A stretch of 64,000 bases of DNA from GCF_056712565.1 NZ_CM160072.1; one strand, 5' to 3'; counted from the stretch's first letter, positions 2,784-53,966 are shown. Notes: generated from the sequence alone by a model not told the origin. A program made the numbers and translations.

Positions 2784-4405
<1,622 letters not shown>

Positions 4406-4414
4406 TTTGCATCC

Positions 4415-5068
4415 TTAATCTGTCGCGTCTCGCCATTCGCCATTGGCAAGATTATCCAAAGAGTAATCCCCCATCGCATAGCGAATCAGTCGCAGCGTGG
4501 GGAAACCAACATGGGCGGTCATGCGGCGCACCTGGCGATTACGTCCCTCATATAAGGTGATCTTCAGCCAGCTGGTGGGAATACTTTTGCGCTCACGAAT
4601 TGGTGGATTCCGCGGCCATAACCACGCGGGTTCTTCAACCAGCTCCGCGCCTGCGGGCAGGGTAGGGCCATCATTTAAGGTTACGCCATTGCGCAAGGCT
4701 TCAAGTGCGTCTTGTGTGGGAATACCTTCCACCTGCACATAATAGATTTTTCCGGTGCGTTTACCCGGCTGGGTTAAACGCGCCTGCAACGCGCCGTTAT
4801 TGGTCAGCACCAGTAACCCTTCGCTGTCGCGGTCGAGACGACCTGCCGCATACACCCCCTGAACCGGGATGAATTCTTTTAATGTTTTGCGTCCGGCTTC
4901 ATCGGTGAACTGCGGAAGAACATCGTAGGGTTTATTGAACAGGATCACACGCGTGGGCTGGTTTTCAGGTTTACGCCTGGTAGAACGTTGCGAGCTGAAT
5001 CGCTTAACCTGGTGATTTCTAAAAGAAGTTTTTTGCATGGTATTTTCAGAGATTATGAATTGCCGCAT
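4415..5068 (-). CDS. rluE: 23S rRNA pseudouridine synthase RluE
   Basis: 217 aa ORF; RsuA/RluE family motifs ([17 protein letters not shown]); conserved position upstream of icd. Confidence 0.88.
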
Positions 5069-5239
5069 TATAGCCTAATAACGCGCATCTTTCATGACGG
5101 CAAACAATAGGGTAGTATTGACAAGCCAATTACAAATCATTAACAAAAAATTGCTCTAAAGCATCCGTATCGCAGGACGCAAACGCATATGCAACGTGGT
5201 GGTAGACGAGCAAACCAGTAGCGCTCGAAGGAGAGGTGA

Positions 5240-6490
5240 ATGGAAAGTAAAGTAGTTGTTCCGGCACAAGGCAAGAAGATCACCCTGCAAAACGGCAAAC
5301 TCAACGTTCCTGAAAATCCGATTATCCCTTACATTGAAGGTGATGGAATCGGTGTAGATGTAACCCCAGCCATGCTGAAAGTGGTCGACGCTGCAGTTGA
5401 GAAAGCCTATAAAGGCGAGCGTAAAATCTCCTGGATGGAAATTTACACCGGTGAAAAATCCACACAGGTTTATGGTCAGGACGTCTGGTTGCCTGCTGAA
5501 ACCCTTGATCTGATTCGTGAATATCGCGTTGCCATTAAAGGCCCGCTGACCACTCCGGTTGGTGGCGGTATTCGCTCTCTGAACGTTGCCCTGCGCCAGG
5601 AACTGGATCTCTACATCTGCCTGCGTCCGGTACGTTACTATCAGGGCACTCCAAGCCCGGTTAAACACCCTGAACTGACCGATATGGTTATCTTCCGTGA
5701 AAACTCGGAAGACATTTATGCGGGTATCGAATGGAAAGCAGACTCTGCCGACGCTGAGAAAGTGATTAAATTCCTGCGTGAAGAGATGGGCGTGAAGAAA
5801 ATTCGCTTCCCGGAACATTGCGGTATCGGTATTAAGCCGTGTTCGGAAGAAGGCACCAAACGTCTGGTTCGTGCAGCGATCGAATACGCAATTGCTAACG
5901 ATCGTGACTCTGTGACCCTGGTGCACAAAGGCAACATCATGAAGTTCACCGAAGGCGCGTTTAAAGACTGGGGCTACCAACTGGCGCGTGAAGAATTTGG
6001 CGGTGAACTGATCGACGGCGGCCCGTGGCTGAAAGTTAAAAACCCGAATACCGGCAAAGAGATCGTCATTAAAGACGTGATTGCTGATGCATTCCTGCAA
6101 CAGATCCTGCTGCGTCCGGCTGAATATGATGTTATCGCCTGTATGAACCTGAACGGTGACTACATTTCTGACGCCCTGGCAGCGCAGGTTGGTGGTATCG
6201 GTATCGCCCCTGGCGCAAACATCGGTGACGAATGCGCCCTGTTTGAAGCCACCCACGGTACTGCGCCGAAATATGCCGGACAGGACAAAGTAAACCCAGG
6301 CTCTATTATTCTCTCCGCTGAGATGATGCTGCGCCATATGGGTTGGACTGAAGCGGCTGACCTGATTGTTAAAGGTATGGAAGGCGCAATCAATGCCAAG
6401 ACCGTAACCTATGACTTCGAACGTCTGATGGAAGGCGCTAAACTGCTGAAATGTTCAGAGTTTGGTGACGCGATCATCAAGAATATGTAA
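5240..6490 (+). CDS. icd: Isocitrate dehydrogenase (NADP); 3' ~165 bp is the prophage-adjacent copy of the att duplication
   Basis: 416 aa [41 protein letters not shown]...; classic Icd. Confidence 0.95.
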
Positions 6491-6541
6491 TCACTACATG
6501 TGTTAAATATTGAAACGGGCGTATAACACGCCCGTTGTTTT
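6327..6541. repeat. Left copy of the icd 3'-end direct repeat (attL side of prophage)
   Basis: About 215 bp here are repeated with a few mismatches at 53750..53966, including the icd stop codon and terminator hairpin. Confidence 0.85.
6513..6541 (+). terminator. icd rho-independent terminator
   Basis: Hairpin AAACGGGCGTATAACACGCCCGTT followed by GTTTT, 22 bp after the icd stop. Confidence 0.75.
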
Positions 6542-21678: not shown

Positions 21679-22761
21679 TTAGAACTGATAAACCAGACCT
21701 ACAGCGACGATGTCGTCGGTATCAATACCAGCTGTTTTGGTAAACTTACTATCGTCAATTAAGTTGATTTTGTAATCAACAAAAGTGGACATGTTTTTAT
21801 TAAAGTAGTAAGTAGCACCGACATCGACATACTTGACTAAGTCTCGGTCACCATGAACACCAAGGTCTTTACCTTTTGACTGAAGGTAAGCAACAGATGG
21901 ACGCAGACCGAAGTCAAACTGATATTGTGCTACTGCTTCAAAGTTTTGTGCTTTGTTTGCAATATGGTTATTACCAAAAACGGTCATATTCTGAGTTTCA
22001 GAATATGTGGTAGCCAGATAGATATTGTTCGCATCATATTTCAGGCCTGCAGCCCATACTTCCGCATTTTTGCCGGAGGCATTGAATTTGCTCTTACCAT
22101 AGGCGACCTGACCGTCAGTGCGATCTGATTTAGCATAGGTTGCACCCACGCCGAATCCTTCATACTCATAAGTAGTGGAGAAACCGAAACCATCACCATT
22201 GGCTTCAGTTACGTCAGTGCGGTCATTTTTACCCTGATACTGAGCAGCAAAGTTCAGGCCATCGACCAGACCAAAGAAGTCGTTGTTACGATAAGTTGCA
22301 ACACCAGTAGTGCGACCAGTCATGAACACATCTGTTTGGGTCCAGGTATCACCACCGAATTCTGGCAGAACGTCAGTCCACGCACCGATGTCGTATGCTA
22401 CACCGTAGTTACGGCCGTAATCGATTGAGCCGTAATCACCAAATTTCAGGCCTGCAAATGCAAGACGGGTTTTGTCTTTGGAAGAACCTTGAGATTCAGC
22501 ACGGTTGCCTTTGAATTCATATTCCCACTGACCGAAACCAGTCAGTTGATCGTTGATTTGGGTTTCACCTTTGAAGCCAAGACGGGCATAAGTAGTATCA
22601 CCATCATCTGCATCATTAGAGGAGAAGTAGTGCTTGGCATTAACTTTCCCGTATAGATCCAGCTTGTTACTGTCTTTATTATAAATTTCAGCTGCCTGAG
22701 CAGACATCGCCATCAGTACTGATGCAGCTACAGCAGAAATTGCCACTGTTAATTTTTTCAT
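21679..22761 (-). CDS. nmpC: OmpC/NmpC-family outer membrane porin (prophage moron)
   Basis: Signal peptide [24 protein letters not shown]-terminal ...VGLVYQF beta-barrel terminus, porin-like body; inserted between Q and lysis genes on the opposite strand. Confidence 0.88.
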
Positions 22762-24551: not shown

Positions 24552-24845
24552 TTATTGTGAGCAATACACACGCGCTTCCAGCGGAGTATAAATGCCTAAA
24601 GTAATAAAACCGAGCAATCCATTTACGAATGTTTGCTGGGTTTCTGTTTTAACAACATTTTCTGCACCACCACAAATTTTTGCTGCATCGACAGTTTTCT
24701 TCTGCCCAATTCCCGAAACGAAGAAATGATGGGTGATGGTTTCCTTTGGTGTTACTGCTGTAGGTTTGTTTCCAACAGTAAACGTCTGTTGAGCACATCC
24801 TGTAATAAGCATTGCCAGAGCGGCAGAAAACAACATTTTTTTCAT
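24552..24845 (-). CDS. bor: Bor lipoprotein (serum resistance, lysogenic conversion)
   Basis: 97 aa from MKKMLFSAALAMLITGCAQQTFTVGNKPTAVTPKETITHHFFVSGIGQKKTVDAAKICGG... Confidence 0.9.
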   Translation of the reverse strand: MKKMLFSAALAMLITGCAQQTFTVGNKPTAVTPKETITHHFFVSGIGQKKTVDAAKICGGAENVVKTETQQTFVNGLLGFITLGIYTPLEARVYCSQ

Positions 24846-26015: not shown

Positions 26016-26267
26016 TTATCGGTTTTGGCTACGCAGCATAGTACAAAACGGACAGGTGCATCCCGGGACGGGGGAGGCGTCACATGTCCCTGTGATGGTT
26101 GTTCCGGGTAATGTACTGTGTGGGGCATAAAAATGTCCGATAATTTTACTTTCTACCGCAGTTAGTTGATTCGTTGGTCCTGGTAGCACATTGGGCGAGG
26201 ATTTAAATGCCAGGCAACTGAAGGATGATGTCGCAAGGGAGATAGCGAGAATATTTCTGATTTTCAT
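26016..26267 (-). CDS. Hypothetical small secreted cysteine-rich protein
   Basis: 83 aa from MKIRNILAISLATSSFSCLA (signal peptide); overlaps an alternative 117 aa ORF 25775..26128 in another frame. Confidence 0.3.
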   Translation of the reverse strand: MKIRNILAISLATSSFSCLAFKSSPNVLPGPTNQLTAVESKIIGHFYAPHSTLPGTTITGTCDASPVPGCTCPFCTMLRSQNR

Positions 26268-26415
26268 TTGATGATGCCTCTGTGTGAAATGACGGTAAAC
26301 GACGCACTTGTGCCGGCACATAATAGCAAGCACCATAATAGATCAGATTCGATTCTTGCTGTAAGTGATAATTATTCTCGTTTTCGGGTCCTTTCCGTCG
26401 ATCCAACAGGTTACG

Positions 26416-26427
26416 GGGCGGCGACCT
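26416..26427. other. cosN 12-nt cohesive end site GGGCGGCGACCT
   Basis: ACGGGGCGGCGACCTCGCGGTTTTTCACTATTTATGAAAATTTT matches the lambda cos left end; 188 bp upstream of nu1, as in lambda. Confidence 0.85.
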
Positions 26428-26603
26428 CGCGGTTTTTCACTATTTATGAAAATTTTTCAGGGAAAATCGTGTCGGTACTTCTCGAATATAACTTTTTGTT
26501 TTTTTTAATATTGCATCCGTAAAGGTCCGACATGAAAGTGTCCGAAAATGCCTTTTTCTGGCGTTTTCATGTCGGGCCTTGTATTTGATAATGGGTTGTT
26601 TTC

Positions 26604-27152
26604 ATGAAGGTTAATAAAAAGAGGCTTGCCGAAATTTTCAACGTGGACCCGCGGACGATTGAACGCTGGCAGTCTCAGGGACTCCCTTGCGTCTCCAAAG
26701 GCAGTAAGGGCATTGAATCTGTATTTGATACTGCCATGGCAATTCAGTGGTATGCGCAGAGGGAAACTGATATCGAAAACGAAAAGCTCCGCAAAGAACT
26801 GGCCGATTTGCGTGCGGCAGCGGAGTCAGATTTACAACCCGGCACCATTGACTATGAACGCTACCGGCTCACAAAAGCGCAGGCAGATGCGCAGGAACTG
26901 AAAAATGCCCGTGAAGACGGAGTAGTGCTGGAAACTGAACTGTTTACCTTCATTCTGCAACGTGTGGCACAGGAGATTTCGGGGATACTTGTGCGTGTGC
27001 CGTTGACATTACAGCGTAAATATCCGGACATTTCACCATCACACCTTGATGTGGTGAAAACTGAAATCGCGAAAGCCTCCAATGTTGCAGCTAAGGCCGG
27101 TGAAAACGTGGGCGGGTGGATCGATGATTTCAGACGCGCAGAAGGCAGCTAA
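26604..27152 (+). CDS. nu1: Terminase small subunit Nu1
   Basis: 182 aa; [28 protein letters not shown]... and AEIENEKLR...[26 protein letters not shown] match lambda Nu1. Confidence 0.92.
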
Positions 27153-29052
27153 TGCAGCCGGTGCGATAGCTACAGGGCTTTTATCTCTCATTATTCCTGT
27201 TCCACTGACGACAGTTCAGTGGGCCAATAAACATTATTACCTTCCTAAAGAGTCGTCTTATACCCCGGGGCGATGGGAAACACTGCCGTTTCAGGTTGGC
27301 ATCATGAACTGTATGGGCAACGATCTGATTCGCACGGTTAACCTGATTAAATCTGCCCGTGTTGGTTATACAAAGATGTTGCTGGGAGTGGAGGCTTATT
27401 TTATTGAGCATAAATCACGCAACAGCCTTCTTTTTCAGCCCACGGACTCAGCTGCTGAAGATTTTATGAAATCTCATGTTGAGCCAACGATAAGGGATGT
27501 TCCTGCATTGCTGGAGCTGGCTCCATGGTTCGGAAGAAAACACCGCGATAATACGCTCACCCTGAAGCGTTTTTCCTCCGGTGTGGGGTTCTGGTGTCTG
27601 GGTGGTGCGGCAGCAAAAAACTACCGTGAAAAATCCGTGGATGTGGTCTGTTATGACGAGCTTTCCTCGTTCGAACCGGATGTTGAAAAAGAGGGTTCGC
27701 CAACCCTGCTGGGGGATAAACGTATTGAGGGCTCTGTATGGCCAAAATCCATTCGCGGCTCGACGCCTAAAATCAAAGGCTCCTGCCAGATCGAAAAAGC
27801 CGCTAACGAGTCGGCACACTTCATGCGTTTTTATGTGCCCTGTCCGCACTGTGGGGAGGAGCAGTATCTGAAATTTGGCGATGATGCCTCGCCTTTCGGT
27901 CTTAAGTGGGAGAAGAATAAGCCAGAAAGTGTTTTCTACCTTTGTGAGCATCATGGCTGTGTGATCCATCAGTCTGAGCTTGACCAGAGTAACGGGCGGT
28001 GGATCTGTGAAAACACGGGCATGTGGACTCGTGACGGTCTGACATTTTTCAGCGCCGCGGATAATGAAATTCCGCCGCCGCGCTCCATCACTTTCCATAT
28101 CTGGACGGCGTACAGTCCGTTCACCACCTGGGTACAGATTGTCTATGACTGGCTGGATGCACTGAAAGATCCCAACGGCCTGAAAACCTTTGTGAACACC
28201 ACGCTGGGCGAGACCTGGGAAGAGGCTGTGGGCGAAAAACTCGATCACCAGGTGCTGATGGATAAGGTTGTGCGTTACACGGCGGCGGTGCCTGCCCGGG
28301 TGGTTTATCTGACGGCGGGCATTGACTCGCAGCGAAACCGTTTTGAGATGTATGTCTGGGGATGGGCTCCGGGAGAGGAAGCCTTTCTGGTGGATAAAAT
28401 CATCATTATGGGGCGTCCCGATGAGGAAGAGACGCTGTTACGTGTGGATGCGGCGATCAACAAAAAATACCGCCATGCAGACGGAACCGAAATGACCATT
28501 TCCCGTGTCTGCTGGGACATCGGGGGGATCGATGGCGAAATCGTTTATCAGAGGTCAAAAAAACACGGTGTTTTCCGGGTGCTGCCGGTAAAAGGCGCAT
28601 CTGTCTATGGCAAGCCGGTGATCACCATGCCAAAAACCCGCAATCAGCGGGGCGTGTATCTGTGTGAAGTGGGGACGGACACCGCAAAAGAAATTCTCTA
28701 TGCCCGTATGAAAGCCGATCCCACGCCTGTGGATGAAGCCACGTCGTATGCTATCCGTTTTCCTGATGATCCGGAGATTTTTTCGCAGACAGAGGCGCAG
28801 CAACTGGTCGCGGAAGAGCTTGTGGAGAAGTGGGAAAAAGGAAAGATGCGTCTGCTGTGGGATAACAAAAAGCGGCGTAACGAAGCGCTGGACTGCCTGG
28901 TGTATGCCTACGCGGCATTACGTGTGTCCGTGCAACGCTGGCAGCTTGATCTGGCTGTACTGGCAAAATCCCGGGAAGAAGAGACGACCCGGCCAACCCT
29001 TAAAGAACTGGCAGCGAAGCTGTCCGGAGGAGTGAATGGTTACAGTCGCTGA
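27124..29052 (+). CDS. A: Terminase large subunit A
   Basis: 642 aa from [10 protein letters not shown]...; long lambda gpA-like stretches ([41 protein letters not shown]). Confidence 0.93.
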
Positions 29053-29242
29053 ACTGCAGGCGCTGCGTCAGGCGCGCCTTGATTTATTAACCGGTAAACG
29101 GGTGGTGTCTGTCCAGAAAGATGGTCGCAGAATTGAATATACGGCGGCTTCTCTGGATGAGCTTAACCGGGCGATCAATGATGCGGAGTCGGTACTGGGG
29201 ACAACCCGGTGTCGCCGTCGTCCGCTGGGAGTGAGGTTATGA
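29036..29242 (+). CDS. W: Head-tail joining protein W
   Basis: 68 aa; ...LLTGKRVVSVQKDGRRIEYTAASLDEL... matches lambda gpW. Confidence 0.88.
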   Translation: MVTVAELQALRQARLDLLTGKRVVSVQKDGRRIEYTAASLDELNRAINDAESVLGTTRCRRRPLGVRL

Positions 29243-30831
29243 AACGAACGCCTGTCCTGATTGATGTGAACGGCGTTCCGCTTCGTGAGAGTCTCAGCTA
29301 CAACGGGGGCGGTGCAGGATTTGGCGGGCAAATGGCTGAGTGGTTGCCACCGGCGCAGAGTGCCGATGCGGCCCTGCTGCCCGCGTTGCGTCTGGGGAAT
29401 GCCCGGGCAGATGATCTGGTGCGCAATAACGGAATAGCGGCTAATGCGGTGGCTCTGCATAAGGATCACATTGTCGGGCATATGTTTCTGATTAGCTACC
29501 GTCCGAACTGGCGCTGGCTGGGGATGCGGGAGACCGCAGCAAAAAGCTTTGTCGATGAGGTGGAGGCGGCCTGGTCGGAATACGCCGAAGGGATGTTTGG
29601 CGAGATCGACGTGGAAGGAAAACGCACGTTCACGGAATTTATCCGTGAAGGTGTGGGCGTTCATGCGTTTAACGGCGAAATCTTTGTGCAGCCGGTCTGG
29701 GATACGGAGAGTACGCAACTGTTTCGTACGCGTTTTAAAGCCGTGAGTCCGAAACGGGTGGACACGCCAGGACACGGTATCGGGAACCGTTTTCTGCGGG
29801 CCGGTGTGGAGGTTGATCGATATGGCCGTGCCGTCGCGTACCATATCTGTGAGGATGATTTTCCGTTCTCTGGTAGTGGACGATGGGAACGGATCCCGCG
29901 TGAACTTCCCACCGGGCGTCCGGCCATGCTGCATATTTTCGAGCCGGTGGAGGACGGGCAGACCCGTGGGGCTAATCAGTTTTACAGCGTTATGGAACGG
30001 CTGAAGATGCTCGATTCCCTGCAGGCAACACAGCTTCAGTCGGCCATAGTGAAGGCGATGTATGCAGCGACGATTGAAAGTGAACTTGATACCGAAAAGG
30101 CCTTTGAATATATCGCCGGCGCGCCACAGGAGCAGAAGGATAATCCGCTTATTAATATTCTGGAGAAGTTTTCCAGCTGGTATGACACGAATAGCGTGAC
30201 GCTGGGCGGTGTCAAAATTCCGCACCTTTTCCCTGGTGATGATCTGAAACTACAGACTGCGCAGGATTCAGACAATGGATTTTCTGCGCTTGAACAGGCG
30301 CTGCTGCGGTATATCGCCGCCGGTCTTGGCGTTTCCTACGAACAGTTGTCCCGTGATTACTCGAAGGTCAGTTACTCAAGTGCCCGCGCCTCCGCCAATG
30401 AGTCGTGGCGCTATTTTATGGGGCGGCGAAAATTTATTGCGGCCCGGCTGGCCACGCAGATGTTTTCCTGCTGGCTGGAAGAGGCACTTCTTCGGGGGAT
30501 TATTCGTCCGCCACGGGCACGTTTTGATTTTTATCAGGCGCGATCAGCCTGGTCACGGGCAGAGTGGATTGGTGCCGGAAGAATGGCCATTGACGGGCTC
30601 AAGGAAGTCCAGGAATCAGTGATGCGCATTGAGGCCGGACTGAGCACGTATGAGAAAGAGCTGGCGCTGATGGGCGAGGATTATCAGGACATTTTCCGCC
30701 AGCAGGTCAGGGAATCTGCTGAGCGGCAAAAAGCCGGACTCTCACGTCCGGTGTGGATAGAGCAGGCGTATCAGCAGCAGATAGCGGAGAGTCGCAGGCC
30801 GGAAGAGGAGACAACACCACGTGAGACGTAA
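29239..30831 (+). CDS. B: Portal protein B
   Basis: 530 aa from MKRTPVLIDVNGVPLRESLSYNGGGAGFGGQMAEW (lambda gpB-like). Confidence 0.92.
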   Translation: MKRTPVLIDVNGVPLRESLSYNGGGAGFGGQMAEWLPPAQSADAALLPALRLGNARADDLVRNNGIAANAVALHKDHIVGHMFLISYRPNWRWLGMRETAAKSFVDEVEAAWSEYAEGMFGEIDVEGKRTFTEFIREGVGVHAFNGEIFVQPVWDTESTQLFRTRFKAVSPKRVDTPGHGIGNRFLRAGVEVDRYGRAVAYHICEDDFPFSGSGRWERIPRELPTGRPAMLHIFEPVEDGQTRGANQFYSVMERLKMLDSLQATQLQSAIVKAMYAATIESELDTEKAFEYIAGAPQEQKDNPLINILEKFSSWYDTNSVTLGGVKIPHLFPGDDLKLQTAQDSDNGFSALEQALLRYIAAGLGVSYEQLSRDYSKVSYSSARASANESWRYFMGRRKFIAARLATQMFSCWLEEALLRGIIRPPRARFDFYQARSAWSRAEWIGAGRMAIDGLKEVQESVMRIEAGLSTYEKELALMGEDYQDIFRQQVRESAERQKAGLSRPVWIEQAYQQQIAESRRPEEETTPRET

Positions 30832-32326
30832 TCTTTCACACATTATTGCCGCAGCATTCAATGAACCGCTGCTTCTGGAGCCCGCCTATGCGCGGGTTTT
30901 CTTTTGCGCGCTCGGGCGCGAGATGGGGGCAGCAAGTCTTTCGGTACCACAACAGCAGGTACAGTTTGATGCTCCCGGAATGCTGGCTGAAACGGACGAG
31001 TACATGGCCGGAGGTAAACGACCGGCCCGTGTTTACCGGGTGGTGAACGGTATTGCTGTACTGCCGGTGACCGGCACGCTGGTGCACCGGCTGGGTGGTA
31101 TGCGGCCATTTTCCGGAATGACAGGCTATGACGGCATTGTCGCCTGTCTTCAGCAGGCAATGGCGGATAGCCAGGTGCGGGGCGTACTGCTGGACATTGA
31201 CAGTCCGGGCGGGCAGGCCGCCGGCGCGTTTGACTGCGCTGACATGATTTACCGCCTCCGTCAGCAGAAGCCGGTCTGGGCACTGTGCAATGACACGGCC
31301 TGTTCTGCAGCCATGCTGCTGGCGTCGGCCTGCTCCCGACGGCTGGTTACCCAGACATCCCGTATCGGCTCCATTGGCGTGATGATGAGCCATGTCAGCT
31401 ATGCCGGTCATCTGGCGCAGGCCGGTGTGGATATCACGCTGATTTACTCAGGGGCGCACAAGGTGGATGGCAATCAGTTTGAAGCGTTGCCGGCAGAGGT
31501 TCGCCAGGACATGCAGCAGCGGATTGATGCGGCGCGCCGGATGTTTGCCGAAAAAGTGGCGATGTATACCGGTCTGTCTGTTGATGCCGTCACGGGAACA
31601 GAGGCTGCCGTTTTTGAAGGTCAGTCCGGCATTGAGGCCGGGCTGGCGGATGAATTAATCAATGCGTCGGATGCCATCAGTGTGATGGCCACGGCGCTGA
31701 ACAGTAATGTCAGAGGAGGCACTATGCCGCAATTAACTGCAACGGAAGCCGCCGCGCAGGAGAACCAGCGAGTGATGGGGATCCTGACATGCCAGGAAGC
31801 GAAAGGACGTGAACAGCTTGCCACGATGCTGGCAGGACAACAGGGCATGAGCGTTGAACAGGCCCGGGCGATTCTGGCCGCGGCGGCACCGCAGCAGCCG
31901 GTGGCATCCACGCAGAGTGAAGCCGATCGCATTATGGTGTGTGAAGAAGCGAACGGTCGTGAACAACTGGCGGCAACGCTGGCGGCGATGCCGGAGATGA
32001 CGGTGGAAAAAGCCCGCCCGATCCTGGCGGCTGCACCACTGGCGGATGCCGGACCATCACTCCGTGATCAGATCATGGCCCTGGATGAGGCAAAAGGGGC
32101 TGAGGCGCAGGCTGAACAGCTGGCTGCCTGCCCGGGAATGACAGTGGAGAGCGCCCGGGCTGTGCTGGCTGCGGGATCAGGTAAGGCAGAACCGGTCTCT
32201 GCATCCACAACCGCCATGTTTGAACATTTCATGGCGAACCATTCACCGGCAGCGGTACAGGGTGGCGTGGCACAGACGTCAGCAGACGGTGATGCGGACG
32301 TGAAAATGCTCATGGCCATGCCATGA
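30821..32326 (+). CDS. C: Capsid assembly protease C (S49 family) with in-frame scaffold (Nu3) region
   Basis: 501 aa; N-terminus AAFNEPLLLEPAYARVFFCAL and S49 core match lambda gpC; C-terminal part carries three tandem ~45 aa repeats. Confidence 0.88.
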   Translation: MRRNLSHIIAAAFNEPLLLEPAYARVFFCALGREMGAASLSVPQQQVQFDAPGMLAETDEYMAGGKRPARVYRVVNGIAVLPVTGTLVHRLGGMRPFSGMTGYDGIVACLQQAMADSQVRGVLLDIDSPGGQAAGAFDCADMIYRLRQQKPVWALCNDTACSAAMLLASACSRRLVTQTSRIGSIGVMMSHVSYAGHLAQAGVDITLIYSGAHKVDGNQFEALPAEVRQDMQQRIDAARRMFAEKVAMYTGLSVDAVTGTEAAVFEGQSGIEAGLADELINASDAISVMATALNSNVRGGTMPQLTATEAAAQENQRVMGILTCQEAKGREQLATMLAGQQGMSVEQARAILAAAAPQQPVASTQSEADRIMVCEEANGREQLAATLAAMPEMTVEKARPILAAAPLADAGPSLRDQIMALDEAKGAEAQAEQLAACPGMTVESARAVLAAGSGKAEPVSASTTAMFEHFMANHSPAAVQGGVAQTSADGDADVKMLMAMP

Positions 32327-32362
32327 AGTCAGTGCTGACCATCAATAGGAGGTTTTTACAAT

Positions 32363-32710
32363 ATGGTGACGAAAACCATCACTGAACAGCGTGCGGAAGT
32401 ACGTATTTTTGCCGGTAATGATCCGGCTCATACCGCCACAGGCAGCAGCGGGATTTCCTCGCCAACACCGGCACTGACGCCCCTGATGCTGGATGAAGCC
32501 ACCGGGAAACTGGTGGTCTGGGACGGACAGAAAGCCGGTAGTGCGGTTGGCATACTGGTACTGCCGCTTGAAGGCACAGAGACGGCGCTGACGTATTACA
32601 AGTCGGGAACCTTTGCGACGGAGGCAATCCACTGGCCTGAAAGTGTGGATGAACACAAAAAGGCCAACGCCTTTGCTGGCAGTGCCCTGAGTCACGCGGC
32701 GCTGCCGTAA
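32363..32710 (+). CDS. D: Head decoration protein D
   Basis: 115 aa; GNDPAHTATGSSG...TPLMLDEATGKLVVWDG...AVGILV...YYKSGTF matches lambda gpD. Confidence 0.92.
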   Translation: MVTKTITEQRAEVRIFAGNDPAHTATGSSGISSPTPALTPLMLDEATGKLVVWDGQKAGSAVGILVLPLEGTETALTYYKSGTFATEAIHWPESVDEHKKANAFAGSALSHAALP

Positions 32711-32767
32711 CACGTTATCAGGCCACCGCGGTGGCCTGACTGATTTCTGAATGAAAGGAACTGATTT

Positions 32768-33796
32768 ATGGGATTGTTTACGACCCGCCAGTTACTCGGT
32801 TATACCGAACAAAAAGTTAAATTTCGTGCGCTGTTTCTGGAGCTGTTTTTCCGCCGTACGGTGAATTTCCATACCGAAGAGGTGATGCTGGACAAAATTA
32901 CCGGAAAAACGCCGGTGGCGGCCTATGTCTCCCCGGTTGTTGAAGGAAAAGTGCTGCGTCATCGTGGTGGTGAAACCCGCGTGTTGCGTCCGGGCTACGT
33001 CAAGCCGAAACACGAATTTAATTACCAGCAGGCGGTTGAGCGCCTTCCTGGTGAAGATCCATCTCAACTGAATGATCCGGCTTACCGCCGTCTGCGTATC
33101 ATTACCGATAACCTCAAACAGGAAGAGCACGCGATTGTCCAGGTGGAAGAAATGCAGGCGGTAAATGCTGTGTTGTATGGCAAATACACCATGGAAGGAG
33201 ACCAGTTCGAGAAAATTGAGGTCGATTTTGGCAGGTCGACGAAGAATAACATCACTCAGGGTAGTGGTAAGGAGTGGTCAAAACAGGATCGTGACACGTT
33301 CGATCCTACACATGATATTGACCTCTACTGCGACCTGGCCAGCGGTCTTGTGAATATTGCCATTATGGACGGTACCGTCTGGCGTCTTCTGAATGGCTTT
33401 AAGCTGTTCCGCGAAAAACTGGATACCCGTCGCGGTTCAAATTCTCAACTCGAAACGGCAGTGAAAGATCTGGGCGCAGTGGTGTCCTTCAAGGGGTATT
33501 ACGGCGATCTGGCCATTGTGGTGGCGAAAACGTCTTATATAGCAGAAGACGGTACCGAAAAACGTTATCTTCCAGATGGCATGCTGGTTCTGGGGAATAC
33601 TGCTGCAGATGGGATCCGTTGTTACGGTGCCATTCAGGATGCTCAGGCGTTGTCCGAAGGTGTGGTGGCCTCTTCCCGTTATCCGAAACACTGGCTGACG
33701 GTAGGGGATCCCGCCCGTGAATTTACCATGACGCAGTCCGCGCCGCTGATGGTGTTGCCGGACCCGGATGAGTTTGTGGTGGTACAGGTGAAATAA
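32768..33796 (+). CDS. E: Major capsid protein E
   Basis: 342 aa; closely matches lambda gpE (PGYVKPKHE, QVEEMQAVNAVLYGKYTMEGD, TGDPAREFTMTQSAPLM). Confidence 0.95.
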   Translation: MGLFTTRQLLGYTEQKVKFRALFLELFFRRTVNFHTEEVMLDKITGKTPVAAYVSPVVEGKVLRHRGGETRVLRPGYVKPKHEFNYQQAVERLPGEDPSQLNDPAYRRLRIITDNLKQEEHAIVQVEEMQAVNAVLYGKYTMEGDQFEKIEVDFGRSTKNNITQGSGKEWSKQDRDTFDPTHDIDLYCDLASGLVNIAIMDGTVWRLLNGFKLFREKLDTRRGSNSQLETAVKDLGAVVSFKGYYGDLAIVVAKTSYIAEDGTEKRYLPDGMLVLGNTAADGIRCYGAIQDAQALSEGVVASSRYPKHWLTVGDPAREFTMTQSAPLMVLPDPDEFVVVQVK

Positions 33797-33847
33797 TCCG
33801 TGAGCGGGGGCGAAATGCCCCCGTGTCTTTTTTCACAGGGGGCTGAT

Positions 33848-34222
33848 ATGGCAACGAAAGAGCAAAATCTGAAACGGCTTGATGAACTGGCCCTGATTCT
33901 GGGGCGTGAGCCGGATATATCCGGGAGTGCCGCAGAGATAGCGCAGCGGGTGGCAGAATGGGAAGAGGAAATGCAGTCATCCGGCGATGATGTACAGGTT
34001 ATGAATATGGATATCCGGGAGCGGGAAACCGCGGCTCATGATGTTCGTGAGGAAACATCCGGCGCGTTAACGCGCATCAGAGTTCTGACCTGCCTCCATC
34101 TCTGTGGCGTTGATGGTGAAACGGGGGAATCCGTTGAGCTTGCGGATGTTGGTCGGGTGATTCTGATTATGTCCTCAGATGCAAAAACACACGTTGATGG
34201 TGGAATGGCTGTTTATGCGTGA
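33848..34222 (+). CDS. FI: DNA packaging protein FI
   Basis: 124 aa from MATKEQNLKRLDELALILGREPD...; lambda FI position. Confidence 0.75.
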   Translation: MATKEQNLKRLDELALILGREPDISGSAAEIAQRVAEWEEEMQSSGDDVQVMNMDIRERETAAHDVREETSGALTRIRVLTCLHLCGVDGETGESVELADVGRVILIMSSDAKTHVDGGMAVYA

Positions 34223-34568
34223 TTTTCAGAATGCCTTTGATGCCGCCCTTGCCGGGGTGGACAGTACGATTGTTGAAGTGATGGGCATCAGTGCGCAGTT
34301 CACCTCCGGTGCACAGCGTGGCGGCGAGGTTCATGGCGTTTTTGACGATCCGGAGTCGCTGGGTTTTGCCAGTAGTGGGATCCGTATTGAAGGAAGTAAC
34401 CCGTCATTATTTGTGCTTACGGATACGGTTTGTGCTGTACGGCGTGGTGACACGCTGACCATTAACGGCGAGATGTTCTGGGTGGACCGTGTTTCTCCGG
34501 ATGACGGAGGGAGTTGTTATCTCTGGCTCAACCGGGGGCAACCACCTGCCGCCAGCCGTCGCCGCTGA
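34215..34568 (+). CDS. FII: Head-tail connector FII
   Basis: 117 aa from MRDFQNAFDAALAG...; C-terminus WVDRVSPDDGGSCYLWL matches lambda FII. Confidence 0.88.
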   Translation: MRDFQNAFDAALAGVDSTIVEVMGISAQFTSGAQRGGEVHGVFDDPESLGFASSGIRIEGSNPSLFVLTDTVCAVRRGDTLTINGEMFWVDRVSPDDGGSCYLWLNRGQPPAASRRR

Positions 34569-48382: not shown

Positions 48383-49240
48383 CTAATTGGGTGATAACAG
48401 ATCCTGTGTATGGGAGTTTCCCTTTTTGCGTGCGTTGATGCTGGTAACGGCAAACGTCATGATGAACAAAACCGCGAATAAGACGACAATCGTCGGAGCT
48501 GGTGCGCTGTCGATAAAAAAGGACAACCAGACACCAGTCATTGACACTATTACCGATATGCCAGTCGCCAGTAGGAGCGCAATATGAAAGCGTTGTGTCA
48601 GGAGTACCGCAATGGCGCCAGGCGCAATGAGCAGAGAAATGGAGAGAATGATACCTACCGCTTTCAGCGTCGCCACAATGGTCAGAGAGACCATGCACAG
48701 CAGCCCATAATGCAGCCATCTCGTATGCAAACCGCTTACCTGCGCCTGTTGATAATCAAAGCTGAACAGCAAAAAATCCCGCCATTTTACGCTAATAACA
48801 AGTGTAACCAGCCCGGCAATAATCATCGTCTGGATTATATCGCCGATGGTTATCCCGAGCATGTCGCCGAAAAGAATATGGTCAAGATGTACGTCTGGTT
48901 TGACTGCAATATACAAGATCAGACCTGCGGCAAACATGCCAGAAAAAACAATCCCCATCACTGTATCTTGCTTGATTCGGCTGTTGTCTTTCAGGTATCC
49001 CGTCGCCACCGCGCAGAATACTCCGGCGACGAATGCCCCTGTAGCCAAAGGTAACCCCAGAATCCAGGCAAGCACGATTCCAGGAAAAACCGCATGACTC
49101 ATCGCGTCACCCATCAGTGCCCAACCTTTCAGGACCAGAAAGACCGACAGCAGCGCACAGGGTATGGAAACTACCAGTGAAATCAGCAGTGCGTGACTCA
49201 TAAAGGTGAACTGCAGTGGCTCCAGTAATAATGCCATCAT
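48383..49240 (-). CDS. sitD: Mn/Fe ABC transporter permease SitD
   Basis: 285 aa polytopic membrane protein of the ABC-3 permease family, last gene of a four-gene operon. Confidence 0.85.
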   Translation of the reverse strand: MMALLLEPLQFTFMSHALLISLVVSIPCALLSVFLVLKGWALMGDAMSHAVFPGIVLAWILGLPLATGAFVAGVFCAVATGYLKDNSRIKQDTVMGIVFSGMFAAGLILYIAVKPDVHLDHILFGDMLGITIGDIIQTMIIAGLVTLVISVKWRDFLLFSFDYQQAQVSGLHTRWLHYGLLCMVSLTIVATLKAVGIILSISLLIAPGAIAVLLTQRFHIALLLATGISVIVSMTGVWLSFFIDSAPAPTIVVLFAVLFIMTFAVTSINARKKGNSHTQDLLSPN

Positions 49241-50094
49241 GAGCGATCCTCCAGCGCCTTATGCGCACGCCGACGATTTGCCAAAAGCCCATGGGTGGGC
49301 GCAAAGACAAATGCTAAAAGAAACAGCAGTGTCTGCGCCACCACGATGATTCCACCTGTCGCGCCGTCCAGAAAGTAACTGACCCACGCGCCGAGGAAAC
49401 TAGTTACACTGCCAATAGTTACAGCAATCATGAGCAGGCGGGGAAAACGATCGGTTAACAACCATGCTGTTGCACCGGGAGTCACCACCAGACAGATCAC
49501 CAGAAAGGCACCAACCGTTTGCAGCGCCGCAACGGTCGAAACCGACAGCAGGGTGAAGAAGATGAGTTTTAATCTGCCCGGATGCAATCCAATAGCACGG
49601 GCGTGATTCTCGTCGAAAAAGGTCACCATAAGATCTTTCCATTTGAAAAAAAGCACGATGATCGAGAGAATGCCAATGATAGTGAGTTGCAGGATATCCG
49701 CCGGATCGATTGCCAGAATATTGCCCAGGACGATGGTCTGAATGTTCACAGATGTCGGGTTCAATGACACCATAAACAGCCCCAGGCCAAAAAAGGACGA
49801 GAAGATCAGACCGATGATGGCATCTTCTTTTAAGCGGGTGCGTTGGTTAAGAAACAGCATGCTGCCCGCAGCCAGTCCGCCGGAAAAGAAGGCTCCCAGA
49901 GAAAACGGAAGCCCCAGCATATATGCCCCCGCAACACCCGGGACAATAGAGTGCGACAACGCATCGCCAATCAGCGACCAGCCTTTTAGCATCAGATAGC
50001 ATGACAGGAAAGCGCAGAGACCGCCGACCATCGCCGAGACCCACATCGCATTGAGCATATATTCATAGCTGAAGGGTTCCAGTAGCACGTTCAT
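49237..50094 (-). CDS. sitC: Mn/Fe ABC transporter permease SitC
   Basis: 285 aa ABC-3 family permease, paralogous to SitD. Confidence 0.85.
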
Positions 50095-50918
50095 CTTTCT
50101 TCCCTCTGCACCGCTGACGGTCGATGAGCCACAAAAGGGCGTTCATCGTCAGTAATAATGCTTTCTTCCGAGCCGTTAAGTGTGACATGGCGCAGTACGC
50201 CGCTAAAAGCCAGCTCCAGGTTCTCGGCTGTAAAAGTGGTGTCTGTCGGCCCGCTTGCCAGGACGGTGCCTTTGACCATGACCGTATAATCGCAAAATGT
50301 CGTGACGGATCCGAGATTGTGTGTTGAGACAAGCATCGTTTTGCCTTCCGCGCGTAACTCCCTCAACAGGCTGATGATTTTGGCTTCGGTTTTCACATCA
50401 ACGCCGGTAAAAGGTTCATCCAGCAGGATCACATCACCCTGCTGTGCAATCGCTCTCGCCAGAAAGACGCGTTTCTTTTGTCCACCGGAAAGCTCGCCGA
50501 TTTGTCGATGGCGAAAATTCACCATATCGACACGTTCCAGCGCATCGGTGACAATCTGACGATCCCTCTTTTTGGCGATACGCAACATACCCATATGCCC
50601 ATAGCGGCCCATCATCACCACATCTTCCACCAGTACAGGAAATGACCAGTCAACATCTTCTGACTGAGGGACGTAGGCAACCAGGTTTTTCTGTAACGCC
50701 TGTCGCGTGGGAATACCCAGAACAGATATCTTTCCGCTGGTCAGACGCACAAATCCCATAATCGCTTTAAACAACGTCGATTTTCCGGAACCGTTTACCC
50801 CAACCAGAGCGGCAATAGATCCGCCTGGTACTGTGAAGGATGCATCGCGCAGTGCTGTGTGCCCGTTACGCCAGGTGACAGTAACATCATTAACGACAAT
50901 GCCTGCAGATTGCATCAT
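50091..50918 (-). CDS. sitB: Mn/Fe ABC transporter ATP-binding protein SitB
   Basis: 275 aa; Walker [13 protein letters not shown] signature LSGGQKKR, Walker B ILLDEP. Confidence 0.9.
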
Positions 50919-51832
50919 TATTTCTCCCTTTTCCCAGCTTTAATTCCCTGTACCAGCGTACTGGTAGTAACCTTAAGAAGGTCGATATACGTCGGTACCG
51001 GGCCGTTTTCTGTGCTCAGGGAATCGACATAGAGCACACCGCCGTAGTGTGCGCCGGTTTCACGCGCAACCTGACGCGCTGGTTTATCGGAAATCGTACT
51101 CTCGCTAAAGACTGCCGGGATATGATTTTTCTTAACTATATCAACAACCTTACGTACCTGCTGCGGTGTTCCTTGTTGATCGGCATTAATCGGCCACAGA
51201 TAAAGCTCTTTTAGCCCCAAATCGCGTGCGAGATAAGAAAAAGCCCCTTCACTGGTGACCATCCATCGCTGATTCTCAGGGAGTTCCGTAATCTGCTTAC
51301 GCAGGGGGGCAAGGGTTTGGGTAATCTTGGCTTTATAAGTATCGGCATTGCGTTGGTAGGTTTGTGCATTTGCCGGATCGTATTTTATCAACGCATCACG
51401 AATATTATCGACGTAAATCAGAGCATTATCTGGCGACATCCATGCATGGGGGTTAGGTTTGCCCTCATAGGGTCCTTCGGTGATCCCTACAGGCGTCACA
51501 CCCGAAGAGACAATTACTTCTGGAACCCCATTGAGATGCTGGTAAAAGCGTTGGAACCACAATTCCAGATTCATACCATTGGCGAGAATCAGTTGTGCCC
51601 CCTGCGCACGTTTAATATCGCCAGGGGTAGGCTGATACTCATGAATTTCTGCACCAGGCTTGGTTATGGATGAGACTTCTGCAGCATCTCCCGCCACGTT
51701 TTTGGCCATATCCGCGATGATGGTAAATGTTGTAATGACCTTGAATTTTTCAGTTGCACTTGCCTGAAATGCGATCGAGCAGGTGAGTGCGAGGCCCCCC
51801 AAGAGCATGGTTACTTTTTTTATCGAGTGCAT
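50918..51832 (-). CDS. sitA: Periplasmic Mn/Fe-binding protein SitA
   Basis: 304 aa with signal peptide; cluster 9 (TroA/ZnuA-like) solute-binding protein. Confidence 0.88.
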
Positions 51833-53749: not shown

Positions 53750-53913
53750 TGCTGCGCCATATGGGCTGGACTGAAGCCGCAGACCTGATTGTTAAAGGTA
53801 TGGAAGGTGCAATCAACGCGAAGACCGTAACCTATGACTTCGAACGTCTGATGGAAGGCGCTAAACTGCTGAAATGTTCAGAGTTTGGTGACGCGATCAT
53901 CAAGAACATGTAA
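53750..53913 (+). pseudogene. icdC: Displaced icd 3' fragment (icdC-like) = right copy of att duplication
   Basis: Encodes ...[53 protein letters not shown] with no upstream icd body; repeat of 6327..6490. Confidence 0.88.
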
Positions 53914-53966
53914 TCTCTACATGTGTTAAATATTGAAACGGGCGTATAACACGCCCGTTGTTTTTA
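53750..53966. repeat. Right copy of icd 3'-end direct repeat (attR side)
   Basis: See 6327..6541; includes a copy of the icd terminator hairpin. Confidence 0.85.

Follow-up and report, generated by a model that had tools for sequence, protein, structure and literature searches.

Three repeats in the scaffold region of a lambdoid prophage protease gene are the Tri boxes of phage 21, copies of a widespread scaffold module

Introduction

Nu3, the lambda scaffold, has itself, C and E as interaction partners, and it is needed for the incorporation of the portal protein B (PMC3224144); the interaction between Nu3 and E has been detected by a two-hybrid assay (PMC3224144). In lambda as well as in P2, protease and scaffold are encoded in one gene, and the protease helps the scaffold to leave (PMC8508860). 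Direct contacts between scaffold and capsid protein are described for P22 and phi29, in which a helix-turn-helix of the scaffold reaches the N-arm of the capsid protein through salt bridges (PMC11922011).

The closest described system to the locus considered here is phage 21, whose sequence record M81255.1, 'Bacteriophage 21 head gene operon', lists gene 5 (record 4572-6077) and, nested in frame within it, gene 6 (AAA32344.1; record 5475-6077). The paper belonging to this record is reportedly that of Smith and Feiss, published in Gene in 1993. Within gene 6, the record carries three repeat_region features, named 'Tri1 box', 'Tri box' and 'Tri3 box', each of them noted as 'function unknown; putative'. 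Two slips of labeling are found in the same record: gene 4, the portal gene (record 2990-4582), has 'head-tail preconnector gp5' as its product name, and 'Tri box' stands where 'Tri2 box' would be expected for the middle repeat.

Here, these systems are compared with a locus within 64,000 nt of NZ_CM160072.1 (GCF_056712565.1), hereafter the window, to whose first letter all coordinates refer unless a record is named. A first-pass annotation of the window, made without database searches, had drawn attention to three tandem degenerate repeats in a homolog of lambda C and had suggested that an unusual repeat expansion might change capsid assembly.

The prophage and its cargo

The window contains a lambdoid prophage in an E. 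coli chromosome, with positions 7100-56900 giving an ungapped match of 99.87% to NZ_CP069990.1. The prophage is bracketed by a 215-nt direct repeat whose two copies, at 6327-6541 and 53750-53964, are 96.3% identical. The right-hand copy is annotated by RefSeq as a 3′ fragment of the isocitrate dehydrogenase gene, and the prophage therefore sits in icd, which we take to be the integration site of phage 21 too.

Several genes on the minus strand accompany the phage functions. An ompC-like porin gene (~21679-22761) is located just downstream of the Q-type antiterminator, and iss, a bor-like lipoprotein gene for increased serum survival (~24552-24845), lies between the lysis genes and the terminase; both are cargo in the style of lysogenic conversion. 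The sitABCD operon for an iron/manganese transporter (~48383-51832), found after the tail-fiber genes and inside the repeat-bounded prophage, looks like prophage cargo.

The protease gene and the nested scaffold gene

The head genes are all on the plus strand, as given by the ORF list and by M81255.1: portal (29209-30831), protease/scaffold, decoration protein (32363-32710) and capsid protein (32768-33796). The protease/scaffold gene, at 30821-32326, is thus placed between the portal gene and the genes for the decoration and major capsid proteins, as in the lambda C/Nu3 type. According to the ORF list it starts with GTG and has 501 codons, and by its match to gp5 of phage 21 it is gene 5, the homolog of lambda C, encoding a prohead protease of 501 aa that ends in a scaffold region.

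Residues 146-293 (31256-31699, plus strand) form a Peptidase S49 domain (PF01343, E = 3.7e-35), scoring 121.6 bits against a cut-off of 24.9, and PHROG 53, 'head maturation protease', matches the protein with E = 5.7e-228. The SppA models of NCBIfam score under their cut-offs, so the protein is not an SppA equivalog. Ser162 (in ACSAAM) and Lys214 (in HKVDGN) align with Ser166 and Lys218 of lambda C and are presumably the catalytic residues of this S49 peptidase.

Gene 6, the Nu3 homolog, occupies 31724-32326 on the plus strand, as does the corresponding CDS of M81255.1, and would encode a 200-aa scaffold identical to the C-terminus of gp5 from Met302 onward. Its ribosome-binding site, AGGAGG at 31714-31719 (plus strand), lies 4 nt 5′ of the ATG at 31724 and corresponds to the RBS noted at record 5464-5468 in M81255.1. 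The signals for the nested start are conserved, as lambda has GGAGGG and ATG at the aligned place. Judging from these sequence signals, the in-frame internal start would give a separate scaffold protein, gp6, in the same arrangement as lambda C and Nu3. Two lambda-type scaffold profiles, PHROG 8399 ('head scaffolding protein') and PHROG 8940, hit gp6 three times each, in separate stretches.

The last 48 residues (32180-32323, plus strand) make up a C-terminal tail composed of an F-E-H-F-M helix, which resembles the leading helix of a box, followed by an acidic stretch and ending in LMAMP. This tail is kept in relatives, with LDRLM...DLLNTPV as the lambda counterpart.

Further starts and signals were also looked for. 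The I-M codons that precede Tri2 and Tri3 have no upstream Shine-Dalgarno sequence, and for this reason a ladder of nested products was dropped from consideration. A promoter and terminator scan of 31500-32500 turned up no relevant signal for the coding strand within the gene. In identical prophages, RefSeq/PGAP annotates only an 'S49 family peptidase' and omits the nested gene 6 (31724-32326).

The repeats and their identity with the Tri boxes

That the C-terminal region contains three tandem degenerate repeats is confirmed by alignment against shuffled sequences, and they lie where the first-pass annotation had placed them. From the unit alignment and the box profile, unit 1 (the Tri1 box with its leading helix) covers residues 314-358 (31760-31894), unit 2 (the Tri2 box) residues 367-407 (31919-32041) and unit 3 (the Tri3 box) residues 414-455 (32060-32185), all on the plus strand. 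By pairwise alignment alone, units 2 and 3 end slightly earlier, at residues 406 (32038) and 453 (32179). The units are ~40 aa long, with periods of 53 and 47 aa between them. Local alignment scores between units range from 83 to 103, whereas shuffled units score 24-26 ± 4.8 (z = 11.6-16.3); in 2000 shuffles that preserve composition, the observed inter-unit score was never attained. The proposed consensus, C.EA.GREQLA..LA...GM.VE.AR.ILAA, agrees with the unit alignment.

The box repeat is detectable at the protein level only. Compared pairwise over their 36-aa cores, the boxes share 53-61% identity in protein and 57-66% in nucleotides, and at third codon positions only 36-39%. It is because of this low third-position identity that the DNA repeat tools, Tandem Repeats Finder and a seed-based direct-repeat finder, are blind to the boxes and returned nothing meaningful; BLAST of the C-terminal region against itself likewise gave the identity match alone. 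Tri3 is the most divergent unit, and in the 21 lineage its nearly invariant GRE has become GAE. With this Arg lost, the box copies may be non-equivalent.

The three repeats are the Tri boxes of phage 21 genes 5 and 6, and as such they were already known. A tblastn search of phage records yielded a full-length match of 99.4% to M81255.1, and the whole record (8134 nt) aligns ungapped to window positions 26250-34383 with 99.53% identity, so that record and window coordinates differ by 26249. The window protein is 99.4% identical to phage 21 gp5 (AAA32343.1), from which it differs by two substitutions, A405S and L407Q; gene 5 of the record falls on 30821-32326 and gene 6 on 31724-32326. On the plus strand, the feature table places the Tri1 box at record 5542-5645 (window 31791-31894), the middle 'Tri box' at 5682-5792 (31931-32041) and the Tri3 box at 5823-5936 (32072-32185). 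These coincide with the repeats found independently in the window, which matches M81255 across this region. The repeats are therefore a rediscovery of an annotation from the early 1990s, about three decades old.

Where the length difference from lambda comes from

The assignment of the repeats to the Nu3-equivalent, C-terminal part of a lambda C homolog is supported, and the length of ~439 aa given for lambda C in the first-pass annotation proves to be exactly 439 aa. Lambda C has neither the same repeats nor the same length as the window protein: it has one box only, and 439 vs. 501 aa. The box profile finds this single box at residues 357-399 of lambda C and three boxes in the window protein. 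The 62-aa excess is a net figure, made up of two added boxes minus a shorter linker: the two boxes bring ~100 aa, and the linker from the protease domain to box 1 is ~40 aa shorter than that of lambda. From Met302 to box 1 there are 12 aa in phage 21, whereas lambda has a 48-aa low-complexity linker.

The other head proteins of phage 21 and lambda are 53-67% identical (34% for FI) and of near-equal length, namely 124 and 132 aa for FI, 115 and 110 aa for the decoration protein, 342 and 341 aa for the capsid protein, and 530 and 533 aa for the portal protein. The protease/scaffold gene product is the only head protein that differs materially in length between the two phages.

The comparison also bears on the lambda annotation itself. 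The lambda ATG aligned with the start of gene 6 is Met309 of C (J02459 ~5342) and is preceded by GGAGGG. GenBank J02459 has nu3 begin at Met239 (5132), a start that lacks a visible Shine-Dalgarno sequence and gives a product of 201 aa. The product from Met309 would have 131 aa, and PHROG 8399 is 131 positions long. The classic lambda nu3 annotation may have the wrong start.

Age, spread and copy number

Of 5426 complete E. coli genomes, 1866 carry the 441-nt block with the three boxes, in up to five copies each, and almost every listed E. coli match spans exactly 441 nt. A 57-nt deletion is seen in one listed match (H146), and H95 shows the same kind of deletion. Across an alignment of 14 gp6-type proteins, taken from E. 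coli, Salmonella and metagenomes and reaching down to 44% identity, each of boxes 1, 2 and 3 has a one-to-one counterpart, with 18, 12 and 10 invariant columns, respectively. The triplication is old, since identity between boxes at third positions is 36-39% and each box is conserved as itself in the relatives. Each box is a conserved copy of a widespread module and is under a constraint of its own.

When copies were counted in related prophages, between one and four boxes were found. This survey made use of a word-indexed protein search whose matches are mostly fragments and which serves to reveal copy-number variants, not to count them. Three-box forms occur in Salmonella (P0037, P0045 and others). 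Two-box forms P0014, P0019 and P0022, the last a Tri1/Tri2 hybrid, are rare in-frame deletions in clusters of 1-3 sequences. A lambda-type scaffold of 132 aa has one box (P0093), and a form with 48 member sequences has four (P0025; locus L005).

The four-box P0025 (L005 1-1043) belongs to the same protein family, has the same tail motif, and goes with a capsid protein of 342 aa that is 82% identical to the one encoded in the window. It is unlike the phage 21 form in that it has four boxes in an exact 46-aa period, 75-92% identical to one another in protein and 71-79% in nucleotides. Such a pattern points to a separate, younger amplification or homogenization. The gene is found in an E. coli prophage that combines a lambda-type head with contractile-tail genes (GPW_gp25 and Baseplate_J).

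The box as a widespread module and its predicted fold

A profile built from 34 diverse boxes was scored against 1.84 billion cluster representatives (E ≤ 0.001) and finds 1535 clusters (clustering at 50% identity). The best-scoring 149 of these 1535 representatives, a set enriched for multi-copy proteins because scores add up, comprise 136 with one box, 10 with two and 3 with three. With a single box in 136 of the 149, the occurrence of three or more boxes is thus limited to a few enterobacterial clusters. In the same 149 best representatives, the C-terminal tail beyond the last box is of nearly constant length, with a median of 49 aa (IQR 41-56). Box-bearing fusions of 400-560 aa are S49 peptidases, apart from one ClpP-type protease (P0220), and other box-bearing proteins, of 100-230 aa, are stand-alone or nested scaffolds, or fragments. 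In the 34-box alignment, a charged EAKGRE motif is conserved beside the hydrophobic core pattern. The box is an ancient, portable unit of ~40 aa, the conserved core of Nu3-type scaffolds, normally present in a single copy.

Existing collections offer little to compare it with. Pfam and NCBIfam contain no model for the box or scaffold region; the helix-hairpin-helix model PF00633 reaches 13.0 bits against a cut-off of 24 (E = 0.097), in Tri3 only (residues 427-450), and was rejected. A sequence search of gp6 against all PDB chains returned a chance match alone (E = 1.7), and Foldseek found nothing at E < 3 in the PDB for the model of whole gp6. Neither sequence nor structural similarity to the C-terminal coat-binding domain of P22 gp8 was found.

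AlphaFold2, given one box together with the 34-box alignment, returns three helices (unit residues 2-9, 18-25 and 32-41) with a mean pLDDT of 84.9 and a pTM of 0.60. The box is thus predicted to be a small three-helix bundle in which the EAKGRE turn comes between the leading helix and the two others. In the model of whole gp6 the boxes are helical (pLDDT 70-82), the linkers fall below 50-60, and pTM is 0.28; modeled in this way, gp6 resembles independent beads on a string. Lambda gpNu3 is said, by the title of a 2011 paper by Medina et al., to be intrinsically disordered, and hence the predicted bundle may form on binding only.

Some box-bearing sequences lie outside the usual setting. One is P0091, a stand-alone protein of 195 aa with two boxes, encoded at L006 6001-6588. 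The small element that carries it has an integrase; after P0091 come a 297-aa ORF and a tape-measure gene, and neither a portal nor a protease gene lies in the vicinity. The element may be satellite-like and use a Nu3-type scaffold. P0118, P0121, P0122 and P0128 combine lambda C with parts of portal, tail U, tail L or tape-measure proteins; rather than natural genes, they are probably products of deletion, sequences of cloning vectors or chimeras of assembly.

Discussion

The explanation that best accounts for the locus, and which we hold with good confidence, has three components: the repeats are the Tri boxes of phage 21, the box is an ancient module, and the boxes would act through a multivalent scaffold mechanism. 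According to this mechanism, the boxes, carried on flexible Pro/Ala/Gln linkers, would be protein-protein interaction modules that build the internal scaffold core, and the constant C-terminal tail would dock on the capsid shell. The favored contacts of the boxes would be those between scaffold and scaffold and between scaffold and protease, the alternative being contacts with the capsid or portal protein. With the same boxes in its own chain, gp5 would co-assemble with gp6 inside the procapsid and later digest the scaffold. Three boxes would make the scaffold trivalent, compared with the monovalent scaffold of lambda, and would stand in for the long unstructured linker of the latter, with capsid geometry presumably unchanged. 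Counted against such a role of the boxes are the natural two-box deletion forms P0014, P0019 and P0022.

As for altered capsid assembly, which had been suggested for the repeats, there is no sign of it: the capsid proteins that go with one, three or four boxes are 341-342 aa long and 62-82% identical. Nothing beyond an ordinary, if multivalent, scaffolding domain is indicated. A more far-reaching proposal, which we put forward tentatively and rate as possible rather than probable, is that the Tri box represents an uncurated, autonomously folding three-helix family and the structured interaction element of 'disordered' Nu3-type scaffolds, that its copy number of 1-4 sets the valency, and that the 21 lineage swapped the lambda linker for two modules.

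Of the rival explanations, the one that survives best, though we regard it as rather unlikely, holds that each box is itself a capsid-protein-binding unit, an analog of the P22 scaffold helix-turn-helix, so that one gp6 ties together up to three capsid subunits. Being small and helical, close to the C-terminus of the scaffold and provided with the conserved charged EAKGRE, the box would suit such a role, a helix-turn-helix does bind the capsid protein in P22 and phi29 (PMC11922011), and lambda Nu3 interacts with E in the two-hybrid assay (PMC3224144). However, the last box lies ~49 aa before the C-terminus, the part of constant length is the tail, and capsid proteins of the same length, 62-82% identical, serve scaffolds with one, three or four boxes. 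In the scaffolds of P22, 80alpha and herpesviruses, it is the extreme C-terminus that does the docking. Because the tail is constant and the number of boxes varies against near-unchanged capsid proteins, contacts of the boxes with each other or with the protease come out somewhat ahead of direct capsid binding.

Less probable still is that the extra boxes are neutral bulk, the scaffold needing only mass or length and the copy number drifting by unequal recombination. Close relatives do differ between one and four copies, in-frame deletion hybrids between boxes exist (the Tri1/Tri2 hybrid P0022, as well as P0014, P0019 and P0008), and lambda has its 48-aa low-complexity linker where phage 21 has boxes, all of which such drift would accommodate. 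Against it, all three boxes keep their conserved core and charged positions in orthologs down to 44% identity, the length of 441 nt is retained in essentially all listed matches among the 1866 carrier E. coli genomes, and the deletion variants are rare, in clusters of 1-4 members vs. 59-154 for full-length gp6-sized forms.

The reading of the first-pass annotation, a recent repeat expansion that alters capsid assembly properties, has very little probability left. It had in its favor an ORF 62 codons beyond lambda C and the single box of lambda, but it is contradicted by the divergence data, the boxes being only 57-66% identical in nucleotides and 36-39% at third positions. Moreover, the boxes are orthologous one-to-one across genera, the same arrangement is found in the early-1990s record of phage 21 and in a third of E. 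coli genomes, and the remaining head proteins are near-equal to those of lambda in length. Rather than an unusual expansion, the repeats are old, diverged and widespread, with the 441-nt block in 1866 of 5426 E. coli genomes. Finally, that the similarity of the boxes is a chance product of Ala/Gln-rich low-complexity sequence, as an alanine-rich region and blank DNA repeat tools might suggest, can be dismissed as refuted, since shuffles preserving composition never match the observed scores (z = 11-16), the box profile picks up each box separately at 75-80 bits, and the same profile recovers 1535 clusters database-wide.

The repeats are thus a long-annotated trait of a classic lambdoid phage, present in about a third of complete E. 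coli genomes. What interest remains lies in the box, which is no curated Pfam or NCBIfam domain, and in the nested scaffold gene, which current RefSeq annotation drops. In addition, the natural variants with one, two, three and four boxes, which go with near-identical capsid proteins, offer a ready-made series on scaffold valency in procapsid assembly.

Comparison with known systems

In its general plan, the system of phage 21 recalls herpesvirus UL26/UL26.5, gpO of P2 and gpI/gpZ of Mu, in all of which a protease shares a C-terminal scaffold region with the abundant scaffold protein. In these systems the scaffold carries the protease into the procapsid, where the protease then destroys the scaffold. 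Their protease families and scaffold sequences are unrelated to those of phage 21, and we know of no Tri-box-like repeat in any of them.

Genes 5 and 6 of phage 21 itself are like the locus in every respect compared, namely in the gene, the nested start with its RBS and the placement of all three boxes. There is no material difference except that the locus belongs to a prophage in an E. coli chromosome of the extraintestinal type, whereas phage 21 is a laboratory phage. Lambda gpC/gpNu3 comes next. It has the same gene order of portal, protease/scaffold, decoration and capsid, a protease part that is 54% identical, an internal Shine-Dalgarno sequence and ATG at the aligned place, one homologous box and a homologous C-terminal tail. 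In contrast, lambda has one box where phage 21 has three, a linker of 48 aa instead of 12 aa, and a C protein of 439 aa compared with 501 aa, and the product from the aligned nested start is 131 aa long in lambda and 200 aa in phage 21.
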